A DNA stretch of 64,000 nucleotides from Tubulanus polymorphus (taxonomy: Eukaryota; Animalia; Nemertea). The translations under genes and the position numbers were made by a program. Positions 15,019 to 40,867 of the stretch are shown here, piece by piece; the stretch's first letter is position 1, and every line of letters starts with the position of its first letter. The notes under the pieces were generated by a model, which had not been told where the DNA came from, searched no databases, and was given only the letters and a program-made list of their open reading frames with translations. Where the stretch lies: NCBI RefSeq assembly GCF_964204645.1, contig NC_134028.1, forward strand, positions 12,385,263 through 12,449,262, written 5' to 3'.

Positions 15019-15084
15019 TATTTATAACGCGAAAAAATACCTCGCATCACTAAAAATTAATTTTGATAAAATTTTCCCTTAATA

Positions 15085-16241: not shown

Positions 16242-19200
16242 ATGGCCATAAGGTAACGTTTTTATTCCATCATCCAAAATATATCTCTTATCATCGAATG
16301 GATTTAAGCTAGTTTTTTCAACTTCATTAATGTTCATCTCGTGATCTTCTGATCTTAAACAATTCATTTTATGTTTCATTACAATTGAGTTATATAAACA
16401 CTTAATATAATCTTGAAATTCTATATGTTTATCAACCACGTGCTTTGTTATTCCTTTTAACTTTTTAGCTTCGTGATCTTTTGTTCTATACCTATACATT
16501 TTACTTCTTATCCCAACAAATTCAATCATTTCATCTCCCCCTAATTCATCTTTAAACTTACCACGCTGCTTTTTATTATCATTGCTAAACAATTCATGAT
16601 CTTTTGGATAATTGCTAATGTCAAAATGATGCTCTAATGTTTTTAAGTCTTTTGTTATGTCATTTGTCTTGATTTTTAGTTTGTAGGCGTCAGTATTTAA
16701 GCAAATTAATGGAAATCCACAGTTAAATGTTCCATCTTCAGTTAACAATTTGGTTTATCTTTCATAATTTCTAAACGCATATTAAAACTTAGTGAATTAT
16801 ACAACACATTTAAACCACTCATTGCAACTTTTCCTTTTTGTGCAAATCTTATTACTGGAAAACTCGTAAATTTTTTAGCACCATCTGCTGCGTAGAATCC
16901 AATGAAGAACCATTTTCTAAGATTATATTCTGCATTTAATACATAATCTGGCACTATCTTTTCTTTGGTTAAAGTATTACTTTTCACTATTGCATGAATA
17001 TAGAATTCATCATTATATTTTAGAGCAAAATCTTTAGGATTATTTACAAGTATTCTATAAACTGCTGATGATTTCATAACATCCATGATTTTAAAAACTT
17101 TGGGCGAATAAACTTCTTCACAGTATTTCTTTATTCTTTCTAATAATTTCAAATCTTGATTGCATAAATACCGATAATATTTAGTTCCACTAACAGATTT
17201 ATACACACCTGCTGAACCATCACCCATAAAAAATCCTTTGATAAAATATTCTTTTTCTTCCAATGTTTTGAGTTCTATATTATAAATATTATCAATTATT
17301 TCATCAAATGACATGATTCATTCTTTGGAAAAATCTTTTATGTAATAATTTATCTCCAATTTTTATATCAGTTGGTTTTATTTCATCACCATTTTGTTTA
17401 ATTAAACTATGATCTTCAGTAACATCTACAACCCCTAATTTAGTTCTAACTCTGTAATTTTCTTATTCGGTTTATGCCTAATAATATTTTTTAATTTTTT
17501 CCATCCATTTCTTGTCCAAACATCCATTAATCCATTTATTTGTATTAATTCTTTTTCACCATACGAAATGTAAAGTTCATTTTGTTTTGGAATTATATCT
17601 GAAATTCTTCTAACTAATATTTGGTTATTGTATTATAATAATATTGGGGTGTCAGCTGTTACAGAATCAAAATATAATATTTCAATATACTTTTCCCCCA
17701 AAAGTGGTTGTAAAACATTATAATAAAAATCATACATTAATAATTTTGATATTTCTAAAACAGTTGAACCAATGAATATAGGTTTATTAAATTTCATTGA
17801 CGTTCTTTTTGATTTAACTGCGGTTAAATAATCATCAAATATTTTATTTCCTAAATGTCTAGGACTTGATTTTAAATGTCTTAATCGTTCAGAATTATTT
17901 ACTAATTCAATATCATTTCTATTTCTAATATTTTCACATGTTTTTCCATAAAACTATTATTCATTAATTTGAAGAAATCTTTTTCAAAATCTGTTTTCGA
18001 TATGGTTCTCTGTTGAGTATTAAAATCTATAATTTTTTCTAACCACTTCGATTGATTTAATTCAATATATCTATGTACTTTCTTTAATTTCATTCCTTGT
18101 TTTAGATAAAATTTTAACATTCTATAATGAACAATATAATCGTATTTATTATTTTGAGTAAGTATTAATTTTTCTGTAAAAACATGATCTTTCGGTTTTA
18201 TTTTCTTCTGGTATTCACTTGAATAACTATCATCTACGGCTAAATGTTCTGGGCAATATGGTAAGTTTCTTGTTTTAAACTTTATGTTATCAGGATATTC
18301 TAAATCAACTACAAAGAAATAACCAATTGGTGCTTCATCTTTTAAACCCATAATTGCACTTTCCCAATAAGTTTTATCATCATTTTCAACTTCTGTTAAT
18401 ATAAAATTTTTGTACGGTTGAGGTTGCATCATTGCCCAACCATATACATTATTGGCGTCAATATATAATAATTTATATTCATCATTTGCTTTAAAATGTC
18501 TATCTCCCATAACACCACTAATTCCACCTCTAATTGATTTTTCAAATAATAAAACCATGTCTGGTTCTTTTAATAAATCTAATTCTACATTTGTATATTT
18601 TAAACCACATTGCCAAGTTAAACCAGGACTTGAATAACAATAACAGGGATCAACATTAAAATGATTCAAATTAACTTCTCTAAATTTTTCAAATATGTCA
18701 GCCAATATCATAACATCTGATTTTAGATATAAATCTACTAATTCACCATGATTTTTTATCTTAAAGTGATTCCAAATATTTAATGTTCTATTAAACACTC
18801 TATCTTTCACATACTCCTCTTTTAATTGATCATAAAATTGTTCTTTTAATAATTCTGTTACATTAAAATCATCATGTGTTTTATAAAATGAATAAGGCAT
18901 TGCGCCCTTATATCTCAATAATTTAAAATCTTGTTCATTTGGATAATAATGTCGAGTTATTATTAAATCATTATCAACTAAACTTTTTGCTAAATTATCT
19001 AATGAACTTGCTAGAAATCTATTAGAATCTAAAAATCTAATGCAACCAAATTGAAATGAAATATAATTTTCAGATGTCTTAGCTAATAGTTTAAAAAATC
19101 ATATTTTCTTAAATTTGCTTCATTCATAGTATTATATTCTTCTATTTCTTGATTAATTACACCCAATTTTCCTGACAATTGTTTTATAAATAGATGGTTA

Positions 19201-21151
19201 TCATAGCCTGATAAATTATGAAATAATATTGGTACGAAATTAACTTTCTTAGCTTGTAAATTGCAATCTTCATGAGCAGCTCCACGATATTTTGAATTTA
19301 AATGATCATGATCTCTAACTTTTTTATCAAATGAATAAAAACGTTTTTCACAGTAACAACAATGAGTTGCATAATTAAAATCAATTTCTTTTTCAATTAT
19401 TTTATTACAAAATTCATTTACTACATCTTCACCTCTAAGAGAAATATATTGACTTTCATATTATTCAGGATAATTTGATTTTATATAAATTCCATATGCA
19501 GCAGCTCTTTGATGAACTTTTTAAATTGTATTTATAATTGATGGGTCTTGAATTATATCTTCATTTAGTTCATTTCCTTTATCCATTGATTTTAATAATT
19601 GCTGTTTGTTATATAATTCTTTTCTATCTTGATCAGTTAATTCTTTATTCAACGATTCAAAATCCCCATAAATTACAAATGGAACAATATTTTTAAATTT
19701 ATGATTAGTAAATTTCAACTTACAATCTTTTTTTGTTGGCATTATTAATTTACAAAAATCTTTATTATCACATAATTCTTTATGTTTTAGTAACGCATTC
19801 TCAGTCATAAATTTAGATAAACATTTTCTACATAGATAAATTTTACGATGATGATCATTTTCTGTTGTTCTAAAGAATAAATCAATTTGTTTTAACCACA
19901 TATAATGTTCATTTTCATCTTTTTTGTAATATAACAAATCTATAACATTTTCATCATCATAATATTCTGTTAAATATCAAGCTTCCAATGTATAATATTT
20001 TCACCTTTTGTCTCTGGTAATTGCATTAATTCGAATACATTTATTTTCAAATTATTAACTTTATCTATCTTAGGTATCATTTTTATAGTTACAGGATATT
20101 GATCAATTTTATATAATGTTTCATATTTCCGGTAATCTGTTATTCTAAAACTATGCGTAATATCATCTGTTGGGTGTAAACAACTAATAATTGACCATAG
20201 AAAACATTAATTATCTTCATTTTGAACATTTGTTACTGCTTATGTTGTAAATAGTAATTGAATATAAGATGATGCTTTAATATCCATTCTGTTGTAAAGT
20301 TTGAATCATTTTTAAACATTGTTTTACTTTTTGATGCTTTATTCCTTTTTGTATTATAAATATTCAAATCTAAAAATATAATTTCATTCAATGTTAAACC
20401 AGAACCCTCAAAATATCTTTCCTCAATATGACGTTTAAATTCATTATATATTTTTTCTAACTTCTCTTTTGTTTGTGTTTTTGAAATTATTTCTTCAGAG
20501 TGTGTTTGAATATTATAATCAATTTTTTCTTCTGATTTGATAAAACTTACTTTTCCAGAAATACTAATTTTTGGATATTCAACATCTGTTACCAAATCTA
20601 GTATTTTTTTCCACGATTTCAATAAATTTACTATAATCTTCTATTGTTGTACCTTTAAAAAATCTAAATATAATAGCTGCAGGTCCAATTTTACTGCGTA
20701 ATGTTTCTAAAATTTCAATTGTAACTTTTATTTCTAGTGAATCGATATAATTTCTAACATTTATCCATGTAAGGTTTATTTGAAATAGATTAAGTGTTTG
20801 AAACTGGTAGTTTTACTTGTTGAGGTTTATCATCATATAATCTGTTCCTAAAACATTATTACTTAAATTTTGTTTGTGTTTTTGCGATTCGAGATGTCTT
20901 TTATAATTCCTTTTTGCTATAAATTCATTACAAACTTCACATTTTATTTCATCCACATTCATATTTTCTAATCGTTCTTTTCTTTCATTGGAATTTTCTG
21001 GTGTCTCAAATCTATAACATTTTTTGTATGATTTGCAGTTTTGTCATGACACGATTTTTGAGATTTATCGATGAATTTTTTACAATATGGACGATAATAT
21101 TGATTTTTATTAACATCATATTTTTTCGGTCTGGAACTCTCTATCTCCCAT
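16239..21151 (-). pseudogene. pPolB copy 2 with intein, frameshifted
   Basis: YIDANNVYGWAM (motif A), FFKLMNNSF (motif B), YFD|TDA (motif C), exonuclease and EndoVII-like motifs. Confidence 0.93.
16695..17665 (-). mobile_element. Intein with LAGLIDADG endonuclease in pPolB copy 2 (small deletion near the C-terminus)
   Basis: SVTADTP start, YFIKGFFMGDGS, WFFIGFYAADG, ends FPLICLN followed by T. Confidence 0.88.
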
Positions 21152-21187
21152 TTTAAAAGAAAAAAAATTACTTGTGGTGATGAGTGG

Positions 21188-21429
21188 GCACGGTCACCTT
21201 CCCCCTGTGTATAGCAAACACGCTATTAACCGTTCTCGTCCAAGCCTCGCTGCATCTATCTAAGCGAGCATGGCTGGTTGCACAATCGCTGTACTACAGT
21301 AATAGCAAACGCGCTAATAACCGTTCTCGTTAGCGCCTCGCTGCATCGATCTATCCAAGCGCAGCTGTTGTTACGCTCACTCACTGTATACGTATGGCAC
21401 AACGCTGTTGACCGTTCTCGTGCCTAGCT
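21188..21429. repeat. 242-bp GC-rich insertion with ~90-bp internal repeats inside the TIR, flanked by an 11-bp duplication
   Basis: GTGATGAGTGG at 21177-21187 and 21430-21440; ACCGTTCTCGT occurs three times. Confidence 0.8.
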
Positions 21430-21924
21430 GTGATGAGTGGTGTTTCGACCTCTCGACCTCTGGTATGAAACCCCACTTTTACAATTACTGATAAATCTCA
21501 AAGGGCAAGACATAATAAAACTAAAACACATTTAGAAAATAAATTGAAATTGGAATATAAAGATGATATATTAGAAACTAAATTAGAAGAATTAAAGAAT
21601 GAAAAAGAAATATACAAATGAGATAGTACATGTAATCAATCATTCAGTGATATAAGATATTATAAAGAACATTTAAAATCTAAAAGTCATATTAGAAATA
21701 TGAATAATGAGTGAAATAATATAAAAAGTAACGAGTAATTAACGAGTTAAAGAAAATATGAATTTTAAACATAAAAAGTGTGAGTTAAGTGTGAGAAGTA
21801 ATTCATACTTTAACAGATTTCGAATAAAAACATAGTCAATTAATCAAATTTTTAAATATAAAAAGTAACCAGTAATTAAAAAGTTGAAGAAAATATCAAT
21901 TTTAATAAAAAAAATTACTTATAA

Positions 21925-22533
21925 ATGAATGAACAGATACTACAGTTCAAAGATATCGATTTAAATGAATTAGAAAAATATTTCACAATTAGAAATTTTA
22001 TTCCTAATAAAGATTTGATTAAAACAGCACGTTTTCGTTTTCAAGTGAAAAATATTACTGAATTAATGATTAAAAATCATTACCCAATGATAGAGTTATG
22101 GAATGAAAAAGATAAAATCTTATTCAATGTAATAATTCCAAAATTCACAACATTTGAAGAAATAGATCAACATTTGATAATTACGGATGAAATGCAATCA
22201 CTTTTAAATAATGAAAATTCACATAAAACATTATTTTCACACTTACGTTATTGCCCTTTCAGAGAATGCTATGTAATGTTTTTCAGAGTAGAAGAAAAAA
22301 GATATATCCCTGACATTCCAAATGAAAAATCATTCAAAGATGTGGGAATTCAAAGTGAATTATATAATGATAAGTCTTATAAAGATATAGGAACTCAATG
22401 TAACTTAGATAATGAAATTGTTACGCCTAAATATAATCTTAATGAAAGCGTTTTATGTAATTGTGGAAACTATTATACTCGAAGCAATAAATCACACCAT
22501 CTTAAATCAAAATATCATGACTCAAAATATTAA
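21925..22533 (+). CDS. Hypothetical protein with C-terminal zinc finger
   Basis: Intact 202 aa; TAAATG start; CNCGNYYTRSNKSHHLKSKYH; KSFKDVGIQ repeat. Confidence 0.65.
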   Translation: MNEQILQFKDIDLNELEKYFTIRNFIPNKDLIKTARFRFQVKNITELMIKNHYPMIELWNEKDKILFNVIIPKFTTFEEIDQHLIITDEMQSLLNNENSHKTLFSHLRYCPFRECYVMFFRVEEKRYIPDIPNEKSFKDVGIQSELYNDKSYKDIGTQCNLDNEIVTPKYNLNESVLCNCGNYYTRSNKSHHLKSKYHDSKY

Positions 22534-23339
22534 TTCAACTCTAAATATTCGAAATAAGATATTTCAAATTACTTTTTTTCTTAAATAAATGTATGATTTC
22601 AACATACCAACCGGAAGTAGTGACTGAAACATTATTTAGTTGCTGGAGGTTTAATATTAGCCGCTCTTTACTTTCATTATGAAAATATTAGTAAGGATCT
22701 AATGAATGAAAATATGAAAAAGTAAGAAATTAAAGAAGTTAAATGGGAATAATAATCAAAAAGTTAATGATTTAGAAGTATTAGAGGATTAAAACAGCAT
22801 CTTTTAATTTAATTTATTTTTTATATTTTAACTATAAAAATGAGTGAGAGTAAGGTGTTAGAAATATTACATCTAACATATAATAATCAACAGAACAATT
22901 AAATCAATGATTATGCTTACAGGATTAGTTTCATTTGCATTTTTTAGCATAAAACAGTTGTTAGAATTCTATGATAATTGCAAAATTAGATACGCTGAAT
23001 TAAAAGATAACATAAATTATCTATCAGATAGAATTAATAATATTAAGTGTTGTGAAAATAAATAAATGTAATAAAAGATATAAATATGAAAAATCATTAA
23101 AAACTCATAAATATATTCATGAGCTTAACAAGAAATTGTATAATTCAAATTAAGTTATTCATATATGATATTTTAATTCTTTACATAAACAATAGAATAA
23201 TACAAGATGATACTAAGTTAGTTGGTTTGTTGTTTTTCTAATATTATTTTAGTCAAATGGAAAGAAATCTAAAGTAAACAAGAATTGAATAAAAAATGTT
23301 AGAAAAACAATAACCTTCTTTAACTATAACTAAATAATA

Positions 23340-24245
23340 CTTACTTAGTAAGTACTAGACGTACTCTAAGTACTAGACGTACGAGTAAGAATCGAAGAAT
23401 CCAAGAAAGTAAGAATCCAAGAAAGTAAGACCGGTACGAGAGGTACGAGTAAGAATCCAAGAATTCTTACTTTCTTACTTTCTTACTTTCTTACTCGTAC
23501 CTCTAGTACTTAGATATATAAACATGAATAAATTATATGTTTCTACTTAATAAAAATAAAAGTAGATTATATTATAACTATTTCAATACTTAGATTAATA
23601 ATTTATTCATTTTTATATTCTATTTTTAAAAGAACTAATTTATATATCTATGTATGAGACGTACGAGTAAGAAACCAAGATTCTTGCCAAGAAAGTAAGA
23701 CAGGTACGAGAGGTACGAGTAAGAATCCAAGAATCCAAGAATTCTTACTTTCTTACTCGTACCTCTAGTACTTAGATACATAAATTAGTTTTTACAAAAA
23801 TTTTAAATATAGATAGTTATAATATAATCTATTTTTTATTTTTATTAAGTGAAAACATATAATTTATTCATTTTCATATTCTATTTTTATAAAAACTAGT
23901 TTATTTATCTGTTTACGAGACGTGCGAGTAAGAAACCAAGATTCTTTCCAAGAAAGTAAGAAAGTAAGAATTCTTGAATTCTTACTCGTACCGCTCGTAC
24001 TTGGGTATATGAATTAGTTTTGTAATAATTAAAGATATAAAAATGAATGAATTATATGTTTTCACTTAATGAAAATAAAAATAGATTATATTATAACTAT
24101 TTCTATACTTAGATTAATAATTTAAATTTTTAATTTAAAAAAAAACTAATTTATATATGTATGTACTAGAGGTACAAGTAAGAAAGTAAGTAAGTAAGAA
24201 TTCTTGGATTCTTGGATTCTTACGTACGTCTTGTACATAGATATA
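23340..24245. repeat. Array of imperfect palindromes (GTACGAGTAAGAA...AAGAATTCTT...TTCTTACTCGTAC) separated by AT-rich spacers
   Basis: About four palindromic blocks; homologous array at 59385-59755. Confidence 0.85.
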
Positions 24246-24249
24246 TAAA

Positions 24250-25413
24250 TTATTCTAATTTTGTTTCTAATAAGTTTATAAAATCATCTTTGTTAATATC
24301 TAATTCATAATAATGCTTAGGTAGATTTATTAATTTTAGTTGAGCCATCAGATTATGATAATTAGTATGTATCTTACCTTCATCACTTAATTTTTCAAAG
24401 TATTCATCATAATAGAAATCAAAATGATATCCAAAATTTTTTATAAGATAACTTAAATCTATTTTTCTCGAATACAATAATTCATATATTTGTTAAGGAT
24501 TATTTTCTGCATAAGCTAATAATTTATCAAATAACAACTTATAGAATATATAATATTGTTTAGTTTTAGGATCAAAATATTTGATATATTTCTTTGGGTT
24601 ATTTAACAATGGTATCATACTCACATTTTTATAAACATTAATTAGATGTAATTTTGATTTAGAACGAGTATTTTCATCAACAGGTTCAATTTTCTTATTA
24701 CAATATTGACACGTTTTATTTCTTTCTATTTCTTCTAATTTCTTTTCATTTTCTTCTAGCTTCCTTTCATTTTCTATATGCGCTTGAGATTTTTTATGGT
24801 TAGAATAATTACTTTTAGAGATATCTAAATTACAAATATTACAATGTTTTTTAGAATCATCAATTGTTTCATTATCGTTAGTTTCGATTGTATCAACATT
24901 ATCTGTTATATTATCTATGGTATCATTAGTTTCAATTGTATTTACATTATCTATGATATTATTATCAGATATATTATTATCATTATTCTTCTTTTCTTTT
25001 TCTTCATGTTTCTTTTATTTCTTATGTGATGCCCAATTGTTATATGATATATATTACATACGTCACAATATTTTTCATTTGTCTTTTTGGTTTTGATATC
25101 AGGTTCAATATTTATATTATAATTATCATTATTGGATGTAGAAGGTATAATATCAATATTTTCATTATTATTAGATGTAGATTCAATATCATCCTCTATT
25201 TTAGTATCAATATTATCTTCTTTCTTAGTTTCAATATTATCTTATTTTTAGTTTCAATATAATTATCTATTTATTATCTATTCTACTTATTCTATATTTA
25301 AATTGATTATAGAATTCTCCAAAATACTTACTATATTCATCATAAGGTATTATATAATATATATCTGATATCATTTCACTTGGACTTTGTATTTCATGTA
25401 TTCCTCCTTCCAT
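24250..25413 (-). pseudogene. Multi zinc-finger (matrin/U1-like spacing) protein
   Basis: Homolog of 59757-60910. Confidence 0.7.
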
Positions 25414-25445
25414 TTATTATAGAAAGTTTTATTAAAATTAAAATT

Positions 25446-26684
25446 CTAATACATAACACTATTCAATTGAGAATTTATGATATTTGATTGCGCTTCAGAT
25501 ATAAGATAAATTTAAACCTCCTTTTTTCTTTTTCATGAATAATTGTATTCCATCTTTAGTGTTATGTAATTTCTTCCCAGAACCATGTAATAAGTTATCC
25601 TCTGTTGTTCTAAAATCTAACCATAATGCGTATTTATTACCGGTATAATAATCAATTTGATTAATATTACAATTTTCAAATGATTTTACTTTTTCATTCA
25701 TAAAATGTTTTTTAATTTCTGGCCACTGGTCATTCTCATTCTCATTCCCTGACAAAATATTTTATTAGCTATTCCTTCGACAGTTATCTCTACTTTTGTT
25801 ATTTCAGGATTATAATAATTATCAACATTTATTGCGCCATTAGAATATATGTTGCAATGGTAAAAAATATTGATACACGTTTAATAGATCTTCTTGGGAA
25901 GTTGATACTTTCATTGATTATTTCATCATTTGCATTAATAGTTACAGTTTTGAATTTATCAATATAATCATATAATAATGAAAATCCTTGGTTGTATTGA
26001 GTTTGAATTGTGCTAGCAATATTTTCATCAGTTACTGTGTCATATTCTAAACATATATTCGATGATTTATATCCCATATTTTTAACAACGCTTGATAATA
26101 CAATTTCATTAACAGGAGAAAATGTTATTTCAAATATAATATCTTCTTGTATTGCATATTTATATAAAGGCGCATTATTATTTATCGATCAAAATCTAAT
26201 TGAATTTTATATTTGCTTCCATAAATCTTTTTTATCAAATTATCTGCGGCACGAGTAACTGTTGCGTAGTTAGCTCCTGACATTAATTTATTATGGTTTT
26301 CTGATTGGAAGCCTTGAAATATCATATTATTTCTATTTTAATTTGTTAACCATAAATCTTTATAATGCACAAATAAATTATAATCATCTAATGAGAAAAC
26401 TGTTTGTGGTCCAATCATTATAGTTAATTTTTTAGTCAAATATCTCCCAACATTATCTACAACATAATTATTATCATGGCCAGTTACTTTTATATCAGCC
26501 GAAAAATAAATACTATTTGGAACATAAAAAGTATTTTGATTTAATCTCGGGATTCTAACATATAAAGTTTCATCGGGATTAATATTTGAAGGATTATGAG
26601 TAATAATATGATGAGATCACTCTGCTTTAATAGCATTAGTTATTCTAGAAGTCTTAGAAAAGGATTTATGTAACTCCCACTCAT
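25446..26684 (-). pseudogene. Major capsid protein (putative double jelly-roll), frameshifted
   Basis: Homolog of 36370-37593 (ALWLDFRTTEDN.LHGSGKKL). Confidence 0.65.
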
Positions 26685-26699
26685 TTATTTAAAAAAATA

Positions 26700-29600
26700 A
26701 TAATTATTTATTTTTTATCATATTAACTAATCCAAAAATAATTGCACTTACAACTGTAATTAAAAATAAAATAATATGTTCAGCAGCAAAGTTAATAATA
26801 TATCCAGCAGATTTTAAAACAAAACCAAAAATTGATGCTTTAACTCCGGGTAAAGCTGCAGCAGATTTTTTAGATAGTTCCTTAAATATTTTGCTAATTT
26901 TTTCAAACCATCTTTCACTTTATCTTGTATAGAATTATTATTACTTGGAGGTTTATCCGGTTTATTGGGTGTAGGCGTAGATTTTATTGAATTTGATATT
27001 GCTAAACCAATTGTTGTAAATAACATAGTTACAGCTGTTAGAATTGAAAGAATTGTGATACCTTCTAATTTAAATCATAATTTTATTCTATCTTTTAATG
27101 ATATTTCAGAATTTGGTTTTATCAACAAATCTTTAAAAATGGCTTTTAATCTATTAATATTATAATCATGTGATTTTTTTAATTATTTAATTTCTTCTTT
27201 CTAAAATTCTATGTTATATTCTAAATCATCTTTTTCTTTTTCTAAATATGCATTTCTTTTTTTAAATTCAATTTCTTCAATAACTTTATTATCTCTATCT
27301 AATTTCAATTGTTCTATTTTCTTAATTCTATCAGTTCTATCTTTTTCTAAAGTTCTAATTTTAAATCTCTTATACTTTTATCATGCGCAATTTTATCAGA
27401 TGCAAGGCTTATACTAATAATTTCTCTAATTGCTTTATCAGAAAATATATCTAATTCTTCTAATTCTTGATCTGTTGCGTCAAGTAACCCATTCGGTAAA
27501 GTTTTTCAATTTAAACTTTATTTGATTTAAGTTTATTAGTTTTGGAAGTTCCGGGATGTTTCCGGTTCTAAATTATTATTGATTATTTCAAATAATTCAT
27601 TAATTCTTTGTTTAAATACTCTTTTATTTTTAATAATTTCCGTGTCGGTAACATTTTCTATTTCATTACTATTAATTATTCTTTTAATTCTAGATGGTTC
27701 TAAATAACAAAAGTTGATTCTGGTAATATTTTGTTTTGATTTTTATAAGTGATATTAATATAATAATCATCTTTCAAAGGATAATAATATTCACCATCTA
27801 AAAGTTTTAATTCTCTTACTAGATATCTGGCACCTCTATCATTTATATAATATCCAGATCTTTCAAATATAGGTTTGAAATTATATATAAATTCACTATT
27901 TTCCTAATTTTGTTTTACTAAATCTGGATTTTCATTTTCAGAATTTATTCTCGATCTAGTTTTTTTAATCAAACTCGTTTGTTGAAGGCGCTTTAGAATC
28001 ACTATCTGCTAAATTAGAATTATATGCTGATCCATCATCATTATCAATATTAGTTTCATCAAAATCAGGTTGTGGTTCATCAGGTATAAATCCATCATTA
28101 TTTTTTCCCATTTCTCCCATTTCATAAGCTTCTGCACCTTCTACTTCCATTTATATCTTATAAAAATTAAAATTTAAAATATAATATTCCTACTATTACA
28201 ATTCCTATACAGGTTTTAGCTAATTTAGTATTTTCAAGGGATTTATTATCATTATTACTTTTGATTATATCATGTGGAATATTATCAGTTTTTATATTTT
28301 CTGTAGTATTGTAATCTTTTATTTTAGAATCATTATCCAATTTAATATTTTTAGTTTTAGTTTTTGTTGATTGAATATGCTTTTTAATTTTTTCACCTTC
28401 AATTAATTTTGGAGCAGTAATAATTTTTCTATTTATATCATTTAATCCAAATGAATTATTTATTGTAGCAGTTTTATCAAATTATTGTAACCAATTATAT
28501 TTCCCATCTTTAATATCAAATCATTAGAAATAATTAACAAATTAGGGCCTATACAATAATTTAATCTAATATGTGATTTATCTAAATAATTTTGGTACCT
28601 GACTATATTTTCTGGAATTGTTCTATTTTTATCATTATGAATAGAATCTTCAAATGAAAATTTAAATTGTTTCTGCGCGTCAAATGAAGTATCATCATTT
28701 CCAACTATTGGGGATCTTGTTTCAACCTGTGATCCTAAAATACAAATTAAATAATTTCTAATTCATTGATTTATTCTCTGTATACCTGATTTTGTAAAAC
28801 CTTCACTATTTTCTAAAATGAAATTAATCCAACCATTATTATTATCAATTTTATAATTATGATAAGCTCCAATTCTATGCATATAATTAATTCTTTTTAT
28901 TTCATACTGTTCACCAATACCTTGTAATTTACCATGTGCTCTAAAATCAGAATTAACATTTATATTAAATTCATTACATATTTTATAAAAACTTAGATAG
29001 ATTAATATTGTTATCCAATTCTTTAAAATATTTCGATCCAGGTAAAGGGCATTCTAATTCGTTTAATATAATTCTAATTTGAAAATACGTGTGAAATCTA
29101 AATATTGTATGAATTAATTGTAAATCGGAATAATTTAAATTTTAATCTAAGTTATTAAGATGATTGTTCCAACTTATACCACACCCTGTTGTTGCACAAT
29201 AAACAGCAAAATCTAATTGGTTCTGCCAATATTTCATATTAGATTTTACTTTATATATATGATATTCATCTCGAGTAAAAGTAACTTCATATGCATTAAA
29301 TATATTTTCCATTTTAGAAATAAAAAACTTTGTTTCAGTTACATAAATCTCTAAATTAATTAATGAATTTAAAACTTAATATATATATGTAATATTCTTA
29401 TTAAAATCTATTGCAGGAATATTATATTCGAAAGCTTTTGGAAACCCAATTTATATAATAAGAAAATTAATAATTAATTAATTCTTTTAATAATTTATCC
29501 TGCTTTTGAATTGTTATATTACCATTTAAACTTATTATATAATCTAGTGTTTTTTCAATTTATTAATTTTTTTATATTAGATTTAATTTTTCTTTATTAC

Positions 29601-31602
29601 TTTTTATATTCAATTTTGAACTTATTCCGGTTAAAACACTTGAACTTACTCCTAACATACAAATTGATATAGCTAAAGGAGTTAATGGACTGAATATTGC
29701 TAAAAATGTTATTACAGAACTTATTGTAACTGAACCACTAATAATAAAATAATATATAATTTTGCTTTTTAAATATTTTTTCTTTTTAACTTTTAAATCA
29801 TTTTCAAATTCTAATATTTTTTTTCCAAATATAATTTTAATTTAGTTTTATTTATATCATGGGGAATAATATCAACATTATCAACTTTATCATCCATTAA
29901 TTAAGAAAAGAAAATTACTAATTAGTAAATTTATATGCCACAAATATAACAATAACTGTTCCGCCTAAAATCCAAATTATTTCATATTTCTTCTGTTCGT
30001 TACTTGGGGTATAATAATCTGATATTGTAGGTTTATGTAGATGTAATTTTTCTTTATTTGTTACTGCGTTATATAAACTCATTCCATCATCAACTGATTG
30101 AAAATCTCTATGTAAAATTTTCTAATCATATAATTCTTTGTTAATCCATATAGTTTTGTCTTTTTTCTCTATATTCTTCTTTCTATTATATTTCTCTAAT
30201 GCTAAGTTATGTCTTTTTTGTTCTGATAATGAACCTTTTTTATCAATATGTTTAAATGAATATCCACCACCAATAAATGCTAAAGCGTTACCAATTACCG
30301 ACCCTTTAATAGTTATAATTGCAGATGCCATTTATTTAGTTAAAAAAATTATGTTTTTATATAGGAGGAATATATTTTTGTTTTTCCAAATAATCAACTG
30401 TTAAATTAGATAAAGTAACTGCTAACATTAATTTTAAAATGTCATTGATATCAAATCTAACAACATTAATAATTCCCATTCTAAATACTTTTTTTAATAC
30501 CATTGTATAACCAACAGTTCCAACTGATAATGATGCTCCATTGTATAACCCATTTATTATCCACTTATTATCACTTATTTATTAATCAAAAAGATTACAA
30601 TCTTCAAAATATTTAGTTATCTTATTTATGATTATTTCAACATTTATTTCATTACTACTTTTATGATTAACATATATTTTAGATAATATGTTTTTAATAT
30701 CATCGATTATTCCATCTTCATTAAATGATATACTTTTAATATCAGTAATTACATCATTTAGTTTAACTGTCATTTCTTTACCATGTTTAAAATCAAATCC
30801 AAAACATATGCTCGGTCCAACAGTTATATTCATTTATATAGTGAAAAAATTACTCTTTACATCTTATAACTAATTCATAAATTACAGGGAAATTATTTAA
30901 ATCAATTAAGTAACTATTATGATTTCTTACTTCTAATTTAAAATTATTCAATTTTGGAATACAATGTTTGAAATCACATTCAGCCAAATTATAATTTATT
31001 TGTGTTCCAAATTGTTTAACATTTTTTAATGGTAAAATATTTAATATACTAGAATTACAAATTCTATCTTAAGTTGCTTCAAATGTTTTTGTAGGATCAA
31101 TTAAATTTCAATAAATATAAAAGTGTGTTAAAGGTATTATATTTGAGCTACCTTCTGCGTTTCCAGTAATAATATGCAGTTTACTTCCTAGCATTTTAGC
31201 TATTGCTTTGTTTACCATAAATTTATTTTGTTCAGTAGATAACTTTATTCTTATTTTATTAGAACTATCAATTTTAATAAATTTAATTCCAAATTCATCA
31301 GTACTCCCGATTTTCAGCCAACCTCTTCTATTTATTTCCTGTGCTAATGATTCTAAATTATATAATCCTGGTTTTAAAAATAGATGAAACCATTTATTTT
31401 TATTTCTCATATAAATTGCAAACCTCTATGTTCAAAAGTTTTATCCGATATATTATAAAAAGAATTACATAAACTTACATTTACTAATTTTAAATCTACA
31501 CAATTTTTAAATCTTCTATCTAATTGTACAGGTAAATTATGAGATTTAGAATTAAATAGTTTTCTAGAATCAACATATTCTCTATTTTTTCAATTCTACC
31601 AT
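26700..31602 (-). pseudogene. Degraded structural module: membrane/coiled-coil gene, 441-aa homolog, small TM genes, penton-like gene
   Basis: Colinear with 37618-42671. Confidence 0.75.
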
Positions 31603-31625
31603 TTATTTTACATATTTTTATATTA

Positions 31626-31994
31626 CTAAAAATCTATATCATGATGCCCATTTTCATTCTTACCTTTAAATATGAAATAGAAATCATCTGAACATAATTC
31701 TTCTAAATCTTCACTAGATAATCTATGAAATCTATCTGGTAAATATGTTCTGAATTTATATTTATTTCCTTTTAATCCTTCATATTCTAAGTGGATAACT
31801 AATTTATCTCCATATTTGTTAGTAACTCTATCAATATTTGTAATTAGATATTTCTTTGAGAGATTTGGTAATTCTGTTAACTTCTTAAATTTATAATTTA
31901 CAGATTTGACATTTGTAGTATCTTTTATTCTATTCAAGAATTCACTGTGTATTTGTTTACTCTCCATTTTAATAACATATTTATTTTTTATCAA
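31626..31994 (-). CDS. Small conserved protein, possibly OB-fold/SSB-like
   Basis: TNKYGDKLVIHL..TYLPDRF..FKGKNENGHHDI; homolog at 32977-33302; the fold is a guess. Confidence 0.55.
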   Translation of the reverse strand: MIKNKYVIKMESKQIHSEFLNRIKDTTNVKSVNYKFKKLTELPNLSKKYLITNIDRVTNKYGDKLVIHLEYEGLKGNKYKFRTYLPDRFHRLSSEDLEELCSDDFYFIFKGKNENGHHDIDF

Positions 31995-32041
31995 AATTGA
32001 TTTTAGAAGTTATTCATACTCATATATATGAATATTATTAG

Positions 32042-32154
32042 AGTAATTGGGAATAAGTTGTTTCGAGTTAAAGGTTGAAGGGTCGAAAAATAAATTCGAG
32101 TGTGCGAGAATTTATTTTTCGACCCTTCGACCTTTGGCTTGAAACAACTTATTC
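32042..32154 (+). repeat. Terminal fold-back hairpin (47-bp stem, GAGTGTGCGA loop)
   Basis: 32051-32097 pairs with 32108-32154 with four G.T mismatches. Confidence 0.9.
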
Positions 32155-32159
32155 ACGAT

Positions 32160-32701
32160 GTTCAAAAGGGTCTGTGTACTCGTGTTTTGTAGATTTTAAA
32201 TGTGCATTTGACTCTGTATGGAGAGATGCCCTTTTCTACAAGCTTTTAAAAGCCAATGTAGGTGGAAACTTTCTAAAAACCATTATAAGTATTTATAAAG
32301 AGGTCTTATATTGTATTAAACTTGATAAAGGCATCACCTCTCCAAGTAATTCTTGTGTTGGTGTAAAACAAGGTTGTGTAATGAGTCCGACTTTATTTAA
32401 CTTGTTCCTATCAGACTTACCAAATATTTTTGATAGTTCATGTAATCCTGTCTCAGTTGCTGATCTCAATTTAAACTGTCTTATGTTTGCTGATGATTTA
32501 GTTTTATTTTCTGAATCAGCAACTGGACTCCAAAGCTGTTTAAACAAACTAGATAACTATTGTCAGAAGTGGCATTTATCAATCAATACCAAAAAAACTA
32601 AAATCATCGTATATAGCAAGAGTGGGCGTCTTGGAAGAAGCTTGAAATTTTATTTGAACGGATATTCTGAACTTGAAAATGTTAGTTCGTACTGCTTATG
32701 A
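32160..32701 (+). mobile_element. Non-LTR retrotransposon (LINE) reverse transcriptase fragment
   Basis: FVDFKCAFDSV, GVKQGCVMSPTLFNLF, LMFADDL. Confidence 0.9.
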
Positions 32702-32910
32702 GCCAGGAAGATCAATTCATGTATATTGTTTCATATGGCCATGGTGACACTGAAATTTTACCAGCTATCGATTTTGTAAATGACTCCATTAAAACTAAGT
32801 TTGGCTGAGATCTCGAATACACTGTACATTGTATATTAAAACGCATGTCATAGCCAGTGGCGCCGCACTAGCGGTCAATTTCGGAGATTTGATTATATTA
32901 AGTTTTTTTT

Positions 32911-32985
32911 TTTCATACCAGAGGTCGAGAGGTCGAGACACCACTCATCACCACAAGTAATTTTTTTTCCTTATAAATGGGAGAT
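32911..32985 (+). repeat. Left TIR (outer ~19 bp missing)
   Basis: TTTCATACCAGAGGTCGAGAGGTCGAGACACCACTCATCACCACAAG.. is the reverse complement of 49112-49187. Confidence 0.9.
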
Positions 32986-33302
32986 AGAAAAGCATTCTTA
33001 GCAACAATAAATAACAGAATAAAACCAGCAAAAAACAATTTGAAATAAAAAAGTTAGTTGATGTTACAAAAGAAATTGAACATAAAATATTGAAATTAGA
33101 AAAGATAAAAACTAAATATGGAGAGAAAGTATCAGCTAATTTAAGCTACTGCAATGTTAGTACATCGCGAGAATTTAAAGTATTTTTACCTGATAAATGG
33201 GTTTCATTGAGTACAGAGGAATTAAAAGATTTAGAAGGATTTAAAATAATCTATCATGGAAAAAATGAAGATGGCCATCATGATTTAGAAATTGTTGATT
33301 AA
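32977..33302 (+). pseudogene. SSB-like small protein, disrupted
   Basis: KTKYGEKVSANL..VFLPDKW..YHGKNEDGHHDL; homolog of 31626-31994. Confidence 0.6.
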
Positions 33303-33459
33303 ATTTTAAAAAAAATAAATTAATCAAAATAATGAATATCTAGAATCCGAAATGACTTATCTGGACAATTTAATTGCTCCGCATAGATAGACAAAAGTAG
33401 TGAGATATTCAATTAATATTCAATTAATTAAAAAAATTATTTTTTTGGCTTTTTTTCTA

Positions 33460-33833
33460 AAATATTAATCCATTTTTTTTATTGTCAATTTTGGAATTTC
33501 AGAATTATTTTCATTTTTGATAGCAGTTGTTTCAGAATTATTAATATCATGAATTTGATTTGATTTCTTATACCAATTACACCCAATCAAAATGAATACA
33601 ATTAAAAATCAAACTGTAAAATATAGACATTTATCAAATATTCTATCATTAGAAGGAGTAGAAATAACAATATTTTCACTATTTTTATTAACAATTTTAT
33701 TACTTATTTTTTCTTTTACAGCTTTTTTATATTCTTGTGATTTAATTCCTAATTGCCGAGACCATTCAATTTGTTTCTGTGATCTCGGTTTTTTCTTCAC
33801 AGTTAATTCCTTCACTTCTTCCACCTCGCTCAT
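33460..33833 (-). pseudogene. Small basic membrane protein
   Basis: KKPRSQKQIEWSRQLG; homolog at 57295-57656. Confidence 0.5.
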
Positions 33834-34371
33834 TTATTATAGAAATATTTTTACTTTCAATATTTGAAAATGTTATAACTCCAGTTGATAATAATGTCAT
33901 AAATCCGCCTAATTGAAATGATAAATATCCAATCCATTTATCTAATTCAGTCATAACTAAATAATCATTTTTTAAATCGGAATATAATCTATTTTCATCT
34001 TCAATTGGTAGTATATAATTACATAATTTACTATAACCTTTTACTACATTTTCTGATATCGCGTCATTAATTCTAGCTGTTCTCGCGGCTTCATAAATCT
34101 TAAATAATCTAATAATTTCATCTGATTTCATTGTATCTAATTCATTATAAGTTAAATTTTTACCGATAAAATTTTTACATTTTCCAGATGCTATTAATAT
34201 TTCTAATTGATGTTTACAATAAAGATAATATTCATAATTATTATTTGTTGTAACATTATTTAAAGCACCATCATCTGGAATTAATTTGTTTTCTGTTATT
34301 CCTGAATGATCTAAAGTTTTTTCAATTGGAACATCACCATTTTTAGATTTTATTTTCTTTTCACCTACCAT
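33766..34371 (-). CDS. Conserved hypothetical protein
   Basis: Homolog at 56693-57295 (FKIYEAAR.ARIND.IS, LYSDLKND). Confidence 0.65.
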   Translation of the reverse strand: MVGEKKIKSKNGDVPIEKTLDHSGITENKLIPDDGALNNVTTNNNYEYYLYCKHQLEILIASGKCKNFIGKNLTYNELDTMKSDEIIRLFKIYEAARTARINDAISENVVKGYSKLCNYILPIEDENRLYSDLKNDYLVMTELDKWIGYLSFQLGGFMTLLSTGVITFSNIESKNISIINERGGRSEGINCEEKTEITETN

Positions 34372-34394
34372 TTATATAACAAAAAAAATTAGTT

Positions 34395-34680
34395 GTGTTG
34401 TTGCAACTAGAATTCAACTAGAATGTAACTAGAATTCAACTAGATTAACAAGCTAGTTGAAATATTGTTGTTTTCATTTATTTCTTGTTGAATTTTATTT
34501 GATTTTTGTTTCAACTACTAATAAATAGAATTCAACTAGAATGTAACTAAAAATATACTAGATTAACAAGCTAGTTAAAATATTGTTGAATTTTATTTGA
34601 TTTTTGTTTCAACTACTAATAACTAGATTTCAACTAGAATATAACTAAAAATATACTACATAAACAAGCTAGTTGAATTT
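34395..34680. repeat. Intergenic repeats (TAGAATTCAACTAGAA..ACAAGCTAGTT), about three units of ~110 bp
   Basis: Seen directly; related motifs at 56445-56640 upstream of the homologous gene. Confidence 0.75.
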
Positions 34681-34746
34681 AAATAAATTCATATTTAAAT
34701 GTGTGTTGTAATAATCTAAATAGTAATTTTGATCTTTTAATATTTT

Positions 34747-35289
34747 TCAACTTATCCATATATCATTATGTAAATCATGTGGAATAATATCATTTTCCTC
34801 AAGCGCATTTTTCATCGATTTTCTATCTTTATTGTAGAATAAAACTAGAAATCTTATGTTTTCTCTAAAGTCTTTAACAATTGAATTATATTTTTGATTT
34901 AAAACCCAAGTTGTTATCCCAAAATGTCTTCCAGAGAAAGCTAAATAGCATAACTCACTTTCTCTTACTTTTGAATCATGTAAATTTGCGCAATCATCTA
35001 TAATGAATAATGTATTTGATCCTTTATAAATATCTATTGCTATTTTAATACAATCATCTAAATTTTCTTTAACTGTTTTAGGATCTAATATAATAAATGT
35101 ATTATTTCTAGTAATATTTCTATCATAAGTTTGATTAAATTCATATGTTGGACAAAATAATACTATATTATCAAAATAGTTTTCATAAACAGTTTCTAAT
35201 AAATTTAATATAAAATAAGTTTTTCCACAATTTGTTACGCCAGCAATTAACATATTATGAGGCTCAAATATAAATAATTCCTTATTCAT
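34747..35289 (-). CDS. Genome-packaging ATPase (A32/FtsK-HerA type); C-terminus probably frameshifted
   Basis: Walker A GVTNCGKT, Walker B LFIIDD, SGRH arginine motif. Confidence 0.88.
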   Translation of the reverse strand: MNKELFIFEPHNMLIAGVTNCGKTYFILNLLETVYENYFDNIVLFCPTYEFNQTYDRNITRNNTFIILDPKTVKENLDDCIKIAIDIYKGSNTLFIIDDCANLHDSKVRESELCYLAFSGRHFGITTWVLNQKYNSIVKDFRENIRFLVLFYNKDRKSMKNALEENDIIPHDLHNDIWIS

Positions 35290-36340
35290 TTATATATTTT
35301 TAATTTTACTTGATAATATCCATTCATTGAATTTATCTGGCCATCCAACCCATTTTACTAAAGAATATTTTTTTCTTTTAATAGTTTTTGTTTTTAATAC
35401 TTTTTCAATTTTATATTCTTGTTCTAGATTTTCAGTAGTTAAACTTAATTCTTCTTCGTAAAAGTAGCCATCAACTTCTTCACCATCTAAATCTTCTAAT
35501 TTATAGACATATGGTTTTGCTGTTATTACCTTTTTTATTTTATATGTTTCTCTAGTAAAATTTCGATCGTATCCTTTATCAAACATCTTTTTATACTTAG
35601 AAATTCTAACATTTTGACCAACTTTAAATTTAGGTTCACCAAAATCATCTACAAGAAATGCTCCATATGAATTATTCCAAACAATTTCAGCATTTTCAGG
35701 TTTTCTAGCATCAATAGGTTTCATTCCAATAGAAGAATGATAAGAATTATTATATCCTTCTATCAATTTTGGTAAAACATCAATCCATTTAAAAGTATTA
35801 TTTGCTGTAAAATATTTCCACATTCTTGTTCTTAATGTTCCATCAAATCGTTCAACAACTGCTGCTTTTTATCCGATTTTGTTGAAAAATATTTAATATT
35901 ATGAATATCTAAGAGTTCATGAACAAGTGAATTATCAAACTCTTTTCCATCATCAAATTGTATTTTTTCTGGTTTTAGTTTATCATCCGAAAGAAATTTT
36001 CTTAAAACATTTGATGTTTGTACAGCATCTTTTCTATAAAGTGGGAAGCTCCATACATAACGACTAAAAATATCAATTATATTCAATAACCACCAATAAT
36101 CATCATTTTTATATTTTCTAACAATTTTTTTATGTGTTGTGTATGTTGGTTGTTCTAACATAAATTCATTTATATCTTTATATTTAACTAAATTTTGTGG
36201 GATTATCTTATCTAATTTATCTTGTTTTACTTGACGCCATATATTTTTGGTAGAAGAATAAGCAACCGAACTCTCAGGGTTGTAATATAAATTTCTTAAA
36301 TATTGTTCTTTAGTATTAGGAGTTTTTTTTACCACCCATT
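35290..36340 (-). pseudogene. Retroviral-type (rve) integrase with C-terminal chromodomain, frameshifted
   Basis: IDIFSRYVW, IQFDDGKEF, YNNSYHSSIGMKP, LVKWVGWPDKFNEW. Confidence 0.9.
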
Positions 36341-36369
36341 TATATATCGTTAATTTTAACTTTATATTT

Positions 36370-37593
36370 CTAATATTGAATACTATCTAATTGTGAATTT
36401 ACAATATTTAATTGTGCGTCAGATATAATATAAATGTGCATTTTAAAATTTAAGCTTCCTTTTTTCTTTTTCATGAAAAATTGTATTCCATCTTTAGTGT
36501 TCTGTAGTTTTTTCCCAGAACCATGTAATGAATTATCCTCTGTTGTTCTAAAATCTAACCATAATGCATATTTATTGCCGGTATAATAATCAATTTGATT
36601 AGTATTACAATTTTCAAATGATTTTACTTTTTCATTCATAAAATGTTTTCTAATTTCTGGCCATTGTGATCTATCATTCTCATTCCTTGACAAAATATTT
36701 TATTTGCTATTCCTTCGATAGTTATTTCTACTTTTGTTATTTCAGGATTATAATAATTATCTACCTTTATTGCACCATTAGAATATGTTGCAATAGTAAA
36801 AAATATTAATATACCTTTAATAGATCTTCTTGGGAAGTTAATATTCTCATTAATTATTTCATCATTTGCATTAATAGTTACAGTTTTAAATGTATCAATA
36901 TAATCATATAATAATGAAAATCCTTGATTGTATTGAGTTTGAATTGTGCTAGCAATATTTTCATTAGTTACTGTGTCATATTCTAAACATATATTTGATA
37001 ATTTATAACCCATATCTTTAACAACGCTAGATAATACAATTTCATTTACAGGAGCAAATGTTATCTCAAATATAATATCTTCTTGAATTATTTATCAATT
37101 CAAAGTCTAATGGAATTTTATATTTGCTTCCATAAATCTTTTTTATCAAATTATCTACAGCATTAGTTACTACAGCATTATTGGCTTCAGATCTTAATTT
37201 ATTATGGTTTTCCGATTGAATACCCTGAAATATCATATTATTTCTATTTTCTTTAGTTAAGCATAAATCTTTATAATGCATAAATAAATTATAATCATCT
37301 AATGAGAAAACTGTTTCTGGACCAATCTTTATTGTTAATTTTTTAATCAAATATCTTCCAACATTATCAACAACATAATTATTATCATGGCCAGTTACTT
37401 TTATATCAGCTGATAAATAAATACTATTTGGAACATAAAAAGTATTTTGTGTTAATCTAGGAATTCTAACATATAAAGTTTCATCGGGATTAATATTTGA
37501 AGGATTATGTGTAATTATATGATGTGATCTTTCTGCTTTAATAGCATTAGATATTCTAGAAATCTTAGAAGGACTTATATAACTCCCACTCAT
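36370..37593 (-). pseudogene. Major capsid protein (putative double jelly-roll), split by frameshifts
   Basis: ~400 aa beta-rich product conserved in three copies, next to the ATPase and integrase. Confidence 0.68.
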
Positions 37594-37617
37594 TTATTTA
37601 ACAAAAAAATTAATTAT

Positions 37618-39055: not shown

Positions 39056-39071
39056 TTATATAATAAAAAAA

Positions 39072-40848: not shown

Positions 40849-40867
40849 TTATTTAGAAGAAAAATTA

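Follow-up and report, generated by a model that had tools for sequence, protein, structure and literature searches.

A decayed capsid-encoding Polinton copy with a terminal hairpin, and its probable descent from a polymerase-encoding element

The window (the whole stretch of DNA analysed, 64,000 nucleotides) contains several Polinton-related elements, and the element under study, here called C, occupies positions 21490-32154. The others are the type A Polinton A (32911-49206), a second type A copy (A2), B (53551-64000) and D (10560-12707); L001 and L002 denote metagenomic relatives, and L003 a further related locus. The features of C and its borders are as follows.

21430-21489, minus strand: right TIR of A2, a type A Polinton copy, directly abutting C (91.7% to 49147-49206; terminal ATTACT)
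21490-21711, plus strand: remnant of a hairpin-type pPolB zinc-finger N-terminus, with one stop (tblastn, 68% amino acid identity, E 9e-26 against L001)
21712-21924, plus strand: remnant of a terminal repeat unit of ~88 bp, with a gene-start box (match to 12116-12262)
21925-22533, plus strand: ORF202, an open ORF of 202 aa with a C-terminal zinc-finger-like motif (C-terminal part in common with D)
22589-23065, plus strand: two small hydrophobic ORFs, broken, with homologues in D (77.6% to 10634-11199)
23365-24257, no strand: nested palindromic repeat array, common to B 59340-59787 (sequence match)
24253-25413, minus strand: zinc-finger (ZnF) gene, broken, present in B too and not in A (sequence match)
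25449-26684, minus strand: double jelly-roll MCP gene with frameshifts and stops (pieces 69-78% in amino acids to the L003 MCP)
26707-30833, minus strand: six accessory virion-module genes, most of them broken (sequence comparison)
30853-31602, minus strand: putative penton (minor capsid) gene, broken (82% in DNA to both A pentons)
31626-31967, minus strand: SSB-like (OB-fold-like) gene of the hairpin type, open, 113 aa (75.0% and 73.6% in DNA to L001 and L002; 52.6% to the A SSB)
32042-32154, no strand: terminal hairpin of two inverted Polinton-terminus copies, the outer arm without its last 9 bases
32155-32700, plus strand: LINE reverse transcriptase fragment truncating the right end of C (RVT_1, E 8e-27)

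The virion module of C is decayed, with stops or frame breaks in six of the eight module genes compared. The MCP-to-penton module (25449-31602, minus strand) is 83% identical to that of A by blastn (86% over the 3 kb common to A, B and C), and it matches L003 gene for gene. At the right end the penton gene is followed by the SSB-like gene and the terminal hairpin, as the initial annotation had described, and the small ORFs of the left arm do match D, as it had also proposed. The pPolB remnant and the ~88-bp repeat remnant are joined at a 3-base microhomology (21711/21712). The 6-bp TSD that goes with a Polinton is not readable for C, because its left end is missing and its right end is cut by the LINE. 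ORF202 gave no match in Pfam, PHROG or homologue searches (E<=0.001, over the lengths searched) and only atlas matches below 0.9, and the B copy of the ZnF gene gave no homologue at E<=0.001 over the lengths searched.

The other elements in the window provide the context for C.

10560-12707, minus strand: D, with a half hairpin, spacer, ~88-bp repeats, a 109-aa ORF and the small-ORF cassette, without SSB or pPolB
32911-49206, minus strand: type A Polinton, decayed, with plain TIRs, an intein-bearing pPolB, virion module, integrase, ATPase and its own SSB type
53549-54278, no strand: left end of B, two tandem hairpins built of the terminus motif
54528-59354, plus strand: B, HNH gene (split by an insertion), genes Y and X, rve integrase and A32 ATPase
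59340-64000, minus strand: B, palindrome array, ZnF gene, MCP gene and partial virion module, leaving the window

The layout of B, with its hairpin start, its HNH, integrase and ATPase genes on the plus strand, its palindrome array and its ZnF gene, is thus as first annotated. Over the outer arm and spacer D is 89.2% identical to B, and the ~88-bp repeats are terminal in both. Pox_A32 ATPase and rve integrase are present in A, B and L003.

The identity of the MCP gene was established through the L003 homologue, the C gene being broken: the L003 model (pLDDT 95.5) has the double jelly-roll fold, with Foldseek matches to the iridovirus (E 6e-16) and PBCV-1 (E 3e-15) capsids. The gene at 31602-30853 is a putative penton gene by its size, its position and a weak DUF5901 match (E 5e-4, below the cut-off, in one of three copies). 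The predicted structure of the SSB-like product is OB-fold-like, with the SSB P12 of PRD1 as the best Foldseek match (E 0.035) and VIA Z scores of at most 5.5, so that its assignment as an SSB is weakly supported by the model. Profiles of the MCP and pPolB matched nothing among PDB sequences.

C had been annotated as having no visible polymerase. A tblastn search over 21490-32154 with the L001, L002 and L003 proteins detected no pPolB core, integrase or ATPase, and C therefore has none of the three genes by which an autonomous Polinton is recognized (pPolB, rve integrase and A32-type ATPase), whereas L001 and L002 have pPolB. The description is correct in this respect but not entirely, since the first 222 bases of C (21490-21711, plus strand) correspond to codons 19-92 of pPolB in L001 numbering. 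In DNA this remnant is 80.8% identical to L001 and 82.6% to L002, against 60.5% to A and 59.2% to A2; the pPolB matches beyond it are only ZnF look-alikes. No whole replicase was found in C, in D or in as much of B as the window contains, no helicase or primase in B, C or D, and the left arms of these three elements, as they stand within the window, are all without a whole pPolB. The 'ZnF + pPolB' of type A, the place of which the SSB-like gene and hairpin were thought to take in C, is a single gene with the ZnF as its N-terminus, and the polymerase of the hairpin subfamily sits instead behind the hairpin-SSB end. The pPolB proteins of L001 and L002 did not match PF03175 at E<=0.01, and one type A pPolB piece did so above the cut-off (E 9e-8). 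Beta-class adintoviruses, or group 1 Polintons, have a PolB divergent from PF03175 with an N-terminal OTU domain.

The position of the polymerase is known from two of the three relatives, L001 and L002. All three are partial contigs from other samples, and a hairpin-type element complete at both ends has not been seen. L001 has a GC-richer flank (36% vs 21.5%), a hairpin unit (190-446), SSB, a 1363-aa pPolB and HNH, and L002 has an inner hairpin arm, SSB, a 1365-aa pPolB and HNH; the order hairpin, SSB, intact pPolB, HNH is thus found in both related loci that bear the SSB type of C. The tail of L001 matches B 56502-56574 (78%, E 2e-10), which is the repeat behind the B HNH gene and before gene Y, and the gene order of B is that of L001 minus SSB and pPolB. 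The B HNH gene is preceded by the same upstream segment as the C SSB gene. In L003, where the ORFs are open except for one integrase frameshift, SSB adjoins penton, and no pPolB occurs within 10,460 of its 11,483 bases. Searches of viral contigs gave no related locus for MCP, SSB, pPolB or the terminus pattern, and three distant loci (L004-L006, 33-35%) for HNH; genome contigs yielded no related loci, and phage records none for pPolB.

The hairpin of C (32042-32154) has a predicted energy of -45.3 kcal/mol (z -13.3; 0 of 200 shuffles), and the two hairpins of B have z values of -17.9 and -18.8. The arms of these hairpins repeat the AGTAAT Polinton terminus in inverted orientation, and this motif is present at the inner arm of the C hairpin. 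In ungapped comparison the terminus motif is identical at 30 of 46 bases to the A TIR start and at 25 of 46 to L001, and nine real matches to it were found against 0-2 by chance per shuffled window (five shuffles). C therefore has cis-acting ends in common with a potential co-resident helper, as a satellite should. The L001 hairpin starts at the element boundary, and that of B abuts a cut BEL element. Since the hairpin-SSB end leads into an intact pPolB in both relatives, a hairpin end is not the mark of a polymerase-free replicon.

The starts of SSB, pPolB, HNH, penton and ORF202 carry one common box of ~30 bases. In L001 the boxes before SSB, pPolB and HNH are ~82-84% identical to one another, and the L001 pPolB box is 86% identical to the L003 penton box. 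The capsid genes did not place B and C in a single lineage: only seven of 34 informative MCP sites, and four of 40 in a second gene, grouped the two, and such a clade was rejected. In the relatives, 19 of 20 gene starts carry TAAATG, the poxvirus late-promoter motif. It is not mere stop-start coupling, for only one of 17 gene pairs has a stop that adjoins the following start. Within ORFs the early terminator of poxviruses, TTTTTNT, is depleted (12 vs 24 expected), but this was discarded as unspecific, because all T-run patterns were equally depleted (ratios 0.34-0.64).

Read depth was estimated from raw reads (X5, at least 85% identity) of one different sample with the same species label and no single-copy calibration. 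The depths were 658-705 for the C-type SSB, 786-889 for MCP and 239-323 for the A pPolB. The C-type penton reached 80-138, as compared with ~680 for the C SSB, and the SSB-penton junction may therefore be a minority one. At 46324, 402 reads (agreement 0.92) depart from the A pPolB as one pile, with a depth of ~620 when scaled by the TIR pile; at this point the matches of L001 decrease from 27/30 to 19/30, without an abrupt step in L002 (21/30, 24/30, 17/30). These reads suggest a second abundant pPolB, about as deep as the SSB-like gene, which may be the hairpin-type pPolB. By scaled read depths, the second pPolB, the hairpin-type SSB and the non-A capsids stand at roughly 1:1:1.

From these results, our best reading of the window is a hairpin-ended Polinton subfamily whose arms were reshuffled at common gene-start boxes and in which the polymerase was lost secondarily. 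C itself would be a broken mosaic copy of such a Polinton, descended from a polymerase-encoding element, that has lost the replication and integration block; we put the probability of this at roughly 0.55. As C retains the start of pPolB, and relatives with the same ends encode the whole of it, C is probably a reduced derivative, and not a satellite of a new kind without polymerase. The sister type proposed in the initial annotation thus holds as to the virion module in common with type A and the swapped arms, but less well as a polymerase-less family: pPolB in other copies had been named as evidence against such a family, and L001 and L002 carry it intact. Recombination at start boxes and microhomologies would delete or swap end cassettes, with hairpin-HNH (B), hairpin-repeats-small ORFs (D) and hairpin-SSB-penton (the right end of C) as the expected products. 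As the origin motif is kept, further copying might occur in trans, with pPolB and integrase supplied by an autonomous element of the hairpin type. The hairpin type itself, and not the type A Polinton, is the likely helper; for replication by host polymerase nothing was found, and this idea was rejected. A displaced strand could use the fold-back for self-priming, and the EndoVII-type HNH is a candidate resolvase. Several observations stand against this explanation, namely the polymerase-less left end common to B and D (89%), the small-ORF cassette diverged under purifying selection, the lack of a complete two-ended hairpin-type element, the absence of pPolB from L003 as noted above, and the putative identity of the pile at 46324.

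It is also possible, if less probable, that C and D are the halves of a real, multiplied lineage without pPolB, integrase or ATPase, for which the autonomous hairpin type would provide copying, packaging and integration, and which would be arranged as hairpin, repeats, small ORFs, ZnF gene, capsid module, SSB and hairpin. The ~88-bp repeats beside the pPolB remnant at 21712 are terminal in other copies (B and D), so that the remnant may be a neighbour's fragment, fused by deletion, and C a D-type element that has lost its hairpin. The polymerase-less end common to B and D fits this lineage, as does the cassette, which directly follows the hairpin in D and lies beside the capsid module in C. 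The cassette has a dN/dS of 0.21 (0.11-0.37; 130 codons; pS 0.47), which suggests purifying selection, and its synonymous distance is double that seen for MCP in the comparison of C with B; however, the estimate is biased low because the frames were picked by protein similarity, and the A vs A2 pPolB control gave 0.38. Moreover, the lineage would be a composite of two incomplete copies, C having neither left hairpin nor TSD; the capsid genes do not unite B with C, and the approximate read totals hardly allow for many capsid modules without a polymerase.

A wider proposal we regard as doubtful. By it, hairpin-ended Polintons of an animal genome would have lost either the polymerase alone (B) or integrase and ATPase as well (C/D) through recombination at common promoter boxes, would have gone on spreading on an autonomous hairpin-type sister as capsid-encoding satellites and, with poxvirus-type late transcription of the whole group from TAAATG, would be satellites of a virophage of an animal giant virus. 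A one-off deletion in the right arm, by which a pPolB once lying between SSB and penton was excised between look-alike boxes, is improbable: pPolB does follow hairpin-SSB in both relatives, the pPolB and penton boxes are similar and the C-type penton is far less deep than the SSB, but in L001 and L002 pPolB leads to HNH and the pre-Y repeat and not to a penton, SSB and penton are adjacent in L003 too, and a contig of run X2 joins the pPolB end to a stretch resembling an SSB or HNH start (its short side, of 27 letters, is unreliable). Least credible is a split genome with a polymerase segment (hairpin, SSB, pPolB, HNH) and a separate capsid segment with common ends, for which the lack of capsid genes in L001 and L002 and of pPolB in L003 might speak, since L001 and L002 end in internal repeats and not in a second terminus, and in B the genes HNH, Y, X, integrase and ATPase are continuous with MCP, in a stretch to which the L001 tail matches.

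The usual picture of an animal Polinton has plain TIRs and an invariant gene order. Among Polintons/Mavericks (Polintoviricetes, adintovirus-type, of animals), most genomic copies, 96%, are decayed (PMC8097293), and the elements described here resemble them in the double jelly-roll MCP, in AGT-starting termini like (AGT)2, in decayed copies and, for A, B or relatives, in rve integrase with chromodomain, A32 ATPase and pPolB (PMC8502044, PMC8097293). They differ from them in that C is without the pPolB core, integrase and ATPase, that the ends are inverted terminus duplications of 113-400 bases with an SSB-like gene, and that Pfam detected no adenain protease among the scanned ORFs of A, B and L003. 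Neither a hairpin-ended or capsid-keeping polymerase-less animal Polinton nor TAAATG in Polintons was found in the literature covered, which takes in few subscription papers or Repbase reports. Through the TAAATG signature it becomes possible to test whether animal Polintons depend on a cytoplasmic helper virus.

Terminal palindromes, with hairpin priming proposed, are reported for virophages and PLV subtype 4 of Halocafeteria seosinensis (bioRxiv 10.64898/2026.07.28.741278). The likeness extends to integrated capsid-encoding elements, reshuffled replication genes near one end and fragments possibly dependent on complete copies. Those palindromes are associated preferentially with non-pPolB replicases; here no helicase or primase was found in B, C or D, and the palindromes precede an intact pPolB in both relatives. 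The probable host here is an animal, and the hairpins, which derive from the TIR origin, are of greater length. A subfamily with fold-back ends before an intact pPolB thus separates 'hairpin end' from 'no pPolB'. In Polisuviricotina, capsid modules re-associate with various replication ends, Polintons within a genome exchange pPolB, and end modules turn over (bioRxiv 10.64898/2026.10.13.758929; PMC10748475; PMC11296320). Capsid modules with varying replication ends are seen here too, but the turnover also includes loss without replacement and apparently proceeds via the common gene-start box, neither of which is described in the parts of those sources that were covered; common start boxes are a concrete suggested route for the turnover of replication modules in Polinton-like viruses. 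Defective or non-autonomous derivatives of DNA transposons and DNA viruses keep their cis-acting ends, lose their enzymes and need a full-length sister, and the coding bulk is usually dropped. C differs in retaining a capsid module of ~6 kb, and if the polymerase-less arms are multi-copy, such elements would be capsid-keeping dependents of another Polinton.

Element C, the stretch under study, is not an autonomous Polinton, and we consider it likely (probability roughly 0.55) that it is a secondary-loss mosaic from a subfamily of Polintons that has hairpin ends and encodes a protein-primed family B polymerase (pPolB). The accepted view of Polintons is that they copy themselves by protein-primed strand displacement and insert by means of their own rve integrase. 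The GC content is 20-28% across most of the window, which contains nested decayed Polinton copies besides a LINE fragment and a BEL-like retrotransposon. These two retroelements and the atlas neighbours of the SSB-like protein point to a host that is probably an invertebrate animal. The main features are as follows.

1-10484: A1, partial copy of the type A Polinton
1784-6584: near-perfect tandem repeat inside A1 (unit 2,146 bases, 99.5%), either recently duplicated or an artefact of assembly
10560-12707: element D, inverted
12708-12867: separate 160-base palindrome, beginning exactly at the tip of the half hairpin of D, probably a host MITE
14620-21489: A2, second partial type A copy
21490-32154: element C
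32911-49206: A, the type A Polinton, with terminal inverted repeats (TIRs) at 32911-32990 and 49114-49206, the left one without its first 19 bases
50557-53546: BEL/Pao-like retrotransposon remnant, cut by the left end of B
53549-64000: element B

The virion module, the SSB-like gene and the terminal hairpin of C (fold -45.3 kcal/mol, z -13.3) were found where the initial annotation had placed them. Scanning metagenomes with an alignment of the SSB gave three related partial contigs (L001, L002 and L003) among at least 595 pattern matches. The pieces of the major capsid protein (MCP) of C are 69-78% identical to the intact MCP of L003, the model of which (pLDDT 95.5, from 79 sequences) matches iridovirus and PBCV-1 capsids (E about 1e-15), and through this relative's model the MCP of C is predicted to be a double jelly-roll. 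The penton is a putative label, and the SSB-like protein has an OB-fold-like model with weak matches only (PRD1 P12, E 0.035, Z up to 5.5). Stops or frame breaks were present in six of the eight module genes compared, and C is a dead copy. Its ORF202 (21925-22533) has two motifs which we take to resemble dynein light chain LC8 binding sites, as candidate sites.

The claim that C has no visible polymerase held for the pPolB core, since a tblastn search of 21490-32154 with the L001-L003 proteins gave no pPolB core, integrase or ATPase, but it did not hold for the first 222 bases, which correspond to pPolB codons 19-92, read inward and adjoin the right TIR of A2. This stump is 81-83% identical to L001 and L002 and about 60% to A, indicating that C retains on its other arm a remnant of the hairpin-type polymerase. 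L001 consists of a GC-richer flank, a hairpin unit (190-446), SSB, an open pPolB of 1363 aa, an EndoVII-type HNH (PHROG, E 1e-24) and repeats, and L002 has the same gene order, starting at the inner hairpin arm. Their SSB genes are of the C type (74-75% at the DNA level, versus 53% for the SSB of A), and the hairpin-SSB end therefore belongs to polymerase-encoding elements. One contig of run X2 joins a pPolB end to an SSB/HNH-start-like stretch, as in L001, but with a short side of only 27 letters, so that the join is unreliable. The pPolB of type A carries an intein at polymerase motif C (approximately 44516-45570 in A, 16700-17660 in A2 and 6985-8045 in A1; an intein_Nterm match that passes the cut-off, E 3e-6, and a LAGLIDADG_3 match), which is absent from the pPolB of L001 and L002; homing-endonuclease insertions have been reported in polinton pPolBs (PMC11161782).

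A third gene order occurs in L003, of which 10,460 of 11,483 bases (1-10460) were covered: A-type SSB, penton, module, MCP, integrase, ATPase, Y, X. All frames there are open except the integrase, and this part contains no pPolB. Its A-type SSB stands directly before the penton, so the SSB-penton adjacency is not confined to C.

We compared about 12% of raw DNA run X5 (same species label) and contigs of three older runs with 29800-49700 at 85% identity or more. The X5 depth was 658-705 for the C-type SSB and 786-889 for MCP; for type A genes it was 239-323 (pPolB), 270 (ATPase) and 432-443 (penton). The penton of C has a low depth (80-138), which argues that only a minority of copies may carry the SSB-penton junction. 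Around the hairpin tip of C, loose ends pile up at the mirror positions 32085 (647) and 32120 (594), indicating that the tip is multi-copy and that on either side of it most copies diverge from C. A further 402 reads (agreement 0.92) depart together from the pPolB of A at 46324, where the identity of L001 falls and that of L002 does not clearly do so; with the TIR pile as the scale (a depth of 1326 gave 856 loose ends), this pile corresponds to a depth of about 620. The ratio of this second pPolB to the hairpin-type SSB and to the non-A capsids (the latter at about 500-600) is then near 1:1:1. The sum is rough, as it comes from one sample under an identity cut-off, lacks a single-copy scale and uses a 46324 pile unlinked to hairpin ends. 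These depths roughly fit an abundant autonomous hairpin type, and a large population without polymerase, such as a multiplied helper-dependent lineage would form, would be hard to fit in. That lineage, close to the satellite of the Polinton proposed in the initial annotation, is a less likely alternative; the stump and the hairpin-SSB-pPolB relatives point to secondary loss.

A dependence on a helper virus is hinted at by the gene starts. TAAATG stands at 19 of the 20 ORF starts in L001-L003, versus 39 of 529 other ATGs, and the sole exception is an internal ATG that follows the frameshift of the integrase; in the window it stands at 16 of 22 chosen starts, alike in A, B and C (for example 37593, 58747, 60910 and 21925). 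With a T at -3, the context for initiation by the host is poor. Judged from sequence, these starts hint at transcription by a poxvirus-like helper or dependence on a cytoplasmic helper virus, while a search of the ORFs for the poxvirus early terminator (TTTTTNT) gave no support for poxvirus-type transcription. The late promoters of vaccinia carry TAAAT and then a G, in overlap with the start codon (PMC11980589), and PLVs associated with entomopoxviruses are known (PMC11296320).

The hairpin arms open with the same 46-base motif as the TIR of A (30 of 46 bases in C, 27-35 in B and D). A scan with the arm of C gave nine copies in the window, every one at an A terminus or a hairpin arm, and 0, 0, 0, 0 and 2 copies in five shuffles; the hairpin is thus an inverted duplication of the Polinton terminus. 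The two arms within C agree at 44 of 50 bases and arms from different elements at 32-36 of 46, from which both arms of one end appear to evolve together. In type A the start box and the first codons lie within the TIR itself, and SSB and pPolB thus begin from opposite ends.

B and C, previously assigned to one family, do have their ends in common, along with the palindrome array and the ZnF gene, but their capsid genes do not group them: with L003 as the fourth sequence, the informative sites were BC 7, AB 13 and AC 14 in MCP and BC 4, AB 31 and AC 5 in a second gene, and the closest MCP pair was A and B (93.3%). This combination argues for mosaic exchange. The tail of L001 matches the repeat behind the HNH of B (78%, E 2e-10), and B thus has the L001 order minus SSB and pPolB. 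The HNH of B also carries the upstream segment preceding the SSB of C; an insertion of about 1 kb splits this gene (54980-56332) and has a 169-base duplication (85% identity) on its flanks. The start boxes ahead of SSB, pPolB and HNH in L001 match one another at about 82-84%, and its pPolB box matches the penton box of L003 at 86%; a deletion between two start boxes would yield exactly B. D has the outer arm and spacer of B (89.2%) but a different cassette of small ORFs, common to the left arm of C at 77.6%. The dN/dS of this cassette between C and D was 0.21 over 130 codons (95% bootstrap 0.11-0.37), a value biased low because the frames were picked by protein similarity (control, pPolB of A versus A2, 0.38). 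In C a 3-base microhomology joins the cassette to the pPolB stump, and it lies within a repeat found at the ends of B and D. This junction is the main uncertainty: either an internal deletion or a fusion of two neighbours could account for it.

The common origin motif, the hairpin, the gene orders and the polymerase stump were directly seen. From these, the arms would be modules swapped or deleted at start boxes, and deleted forms, which retain the origin, could rely for their copying on the hairpin-type pPolB acting in trans. At a terminal fold-back the 3' end would anneal to the inner copy and could prime synthesis, with the HNH as a possible resolvase of the product. Polinton features and the decay of copies (PMC8502044, PMC8097293, PMC6431247), as well as pPolB swapping and module mosaicism (PMC10748475, bioRxiv 10.64898/2026.10.13.758929), are already described; in the portion of the literature covered, we found no description in animals of hairpin-ended pPolB Polintons or of capsid-keeping polymerase-less ones. 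Hairpin priming of this kind has been proposed for palindrome-ended virophages (bioRxiv 10.64898/2026.07.28.741278).
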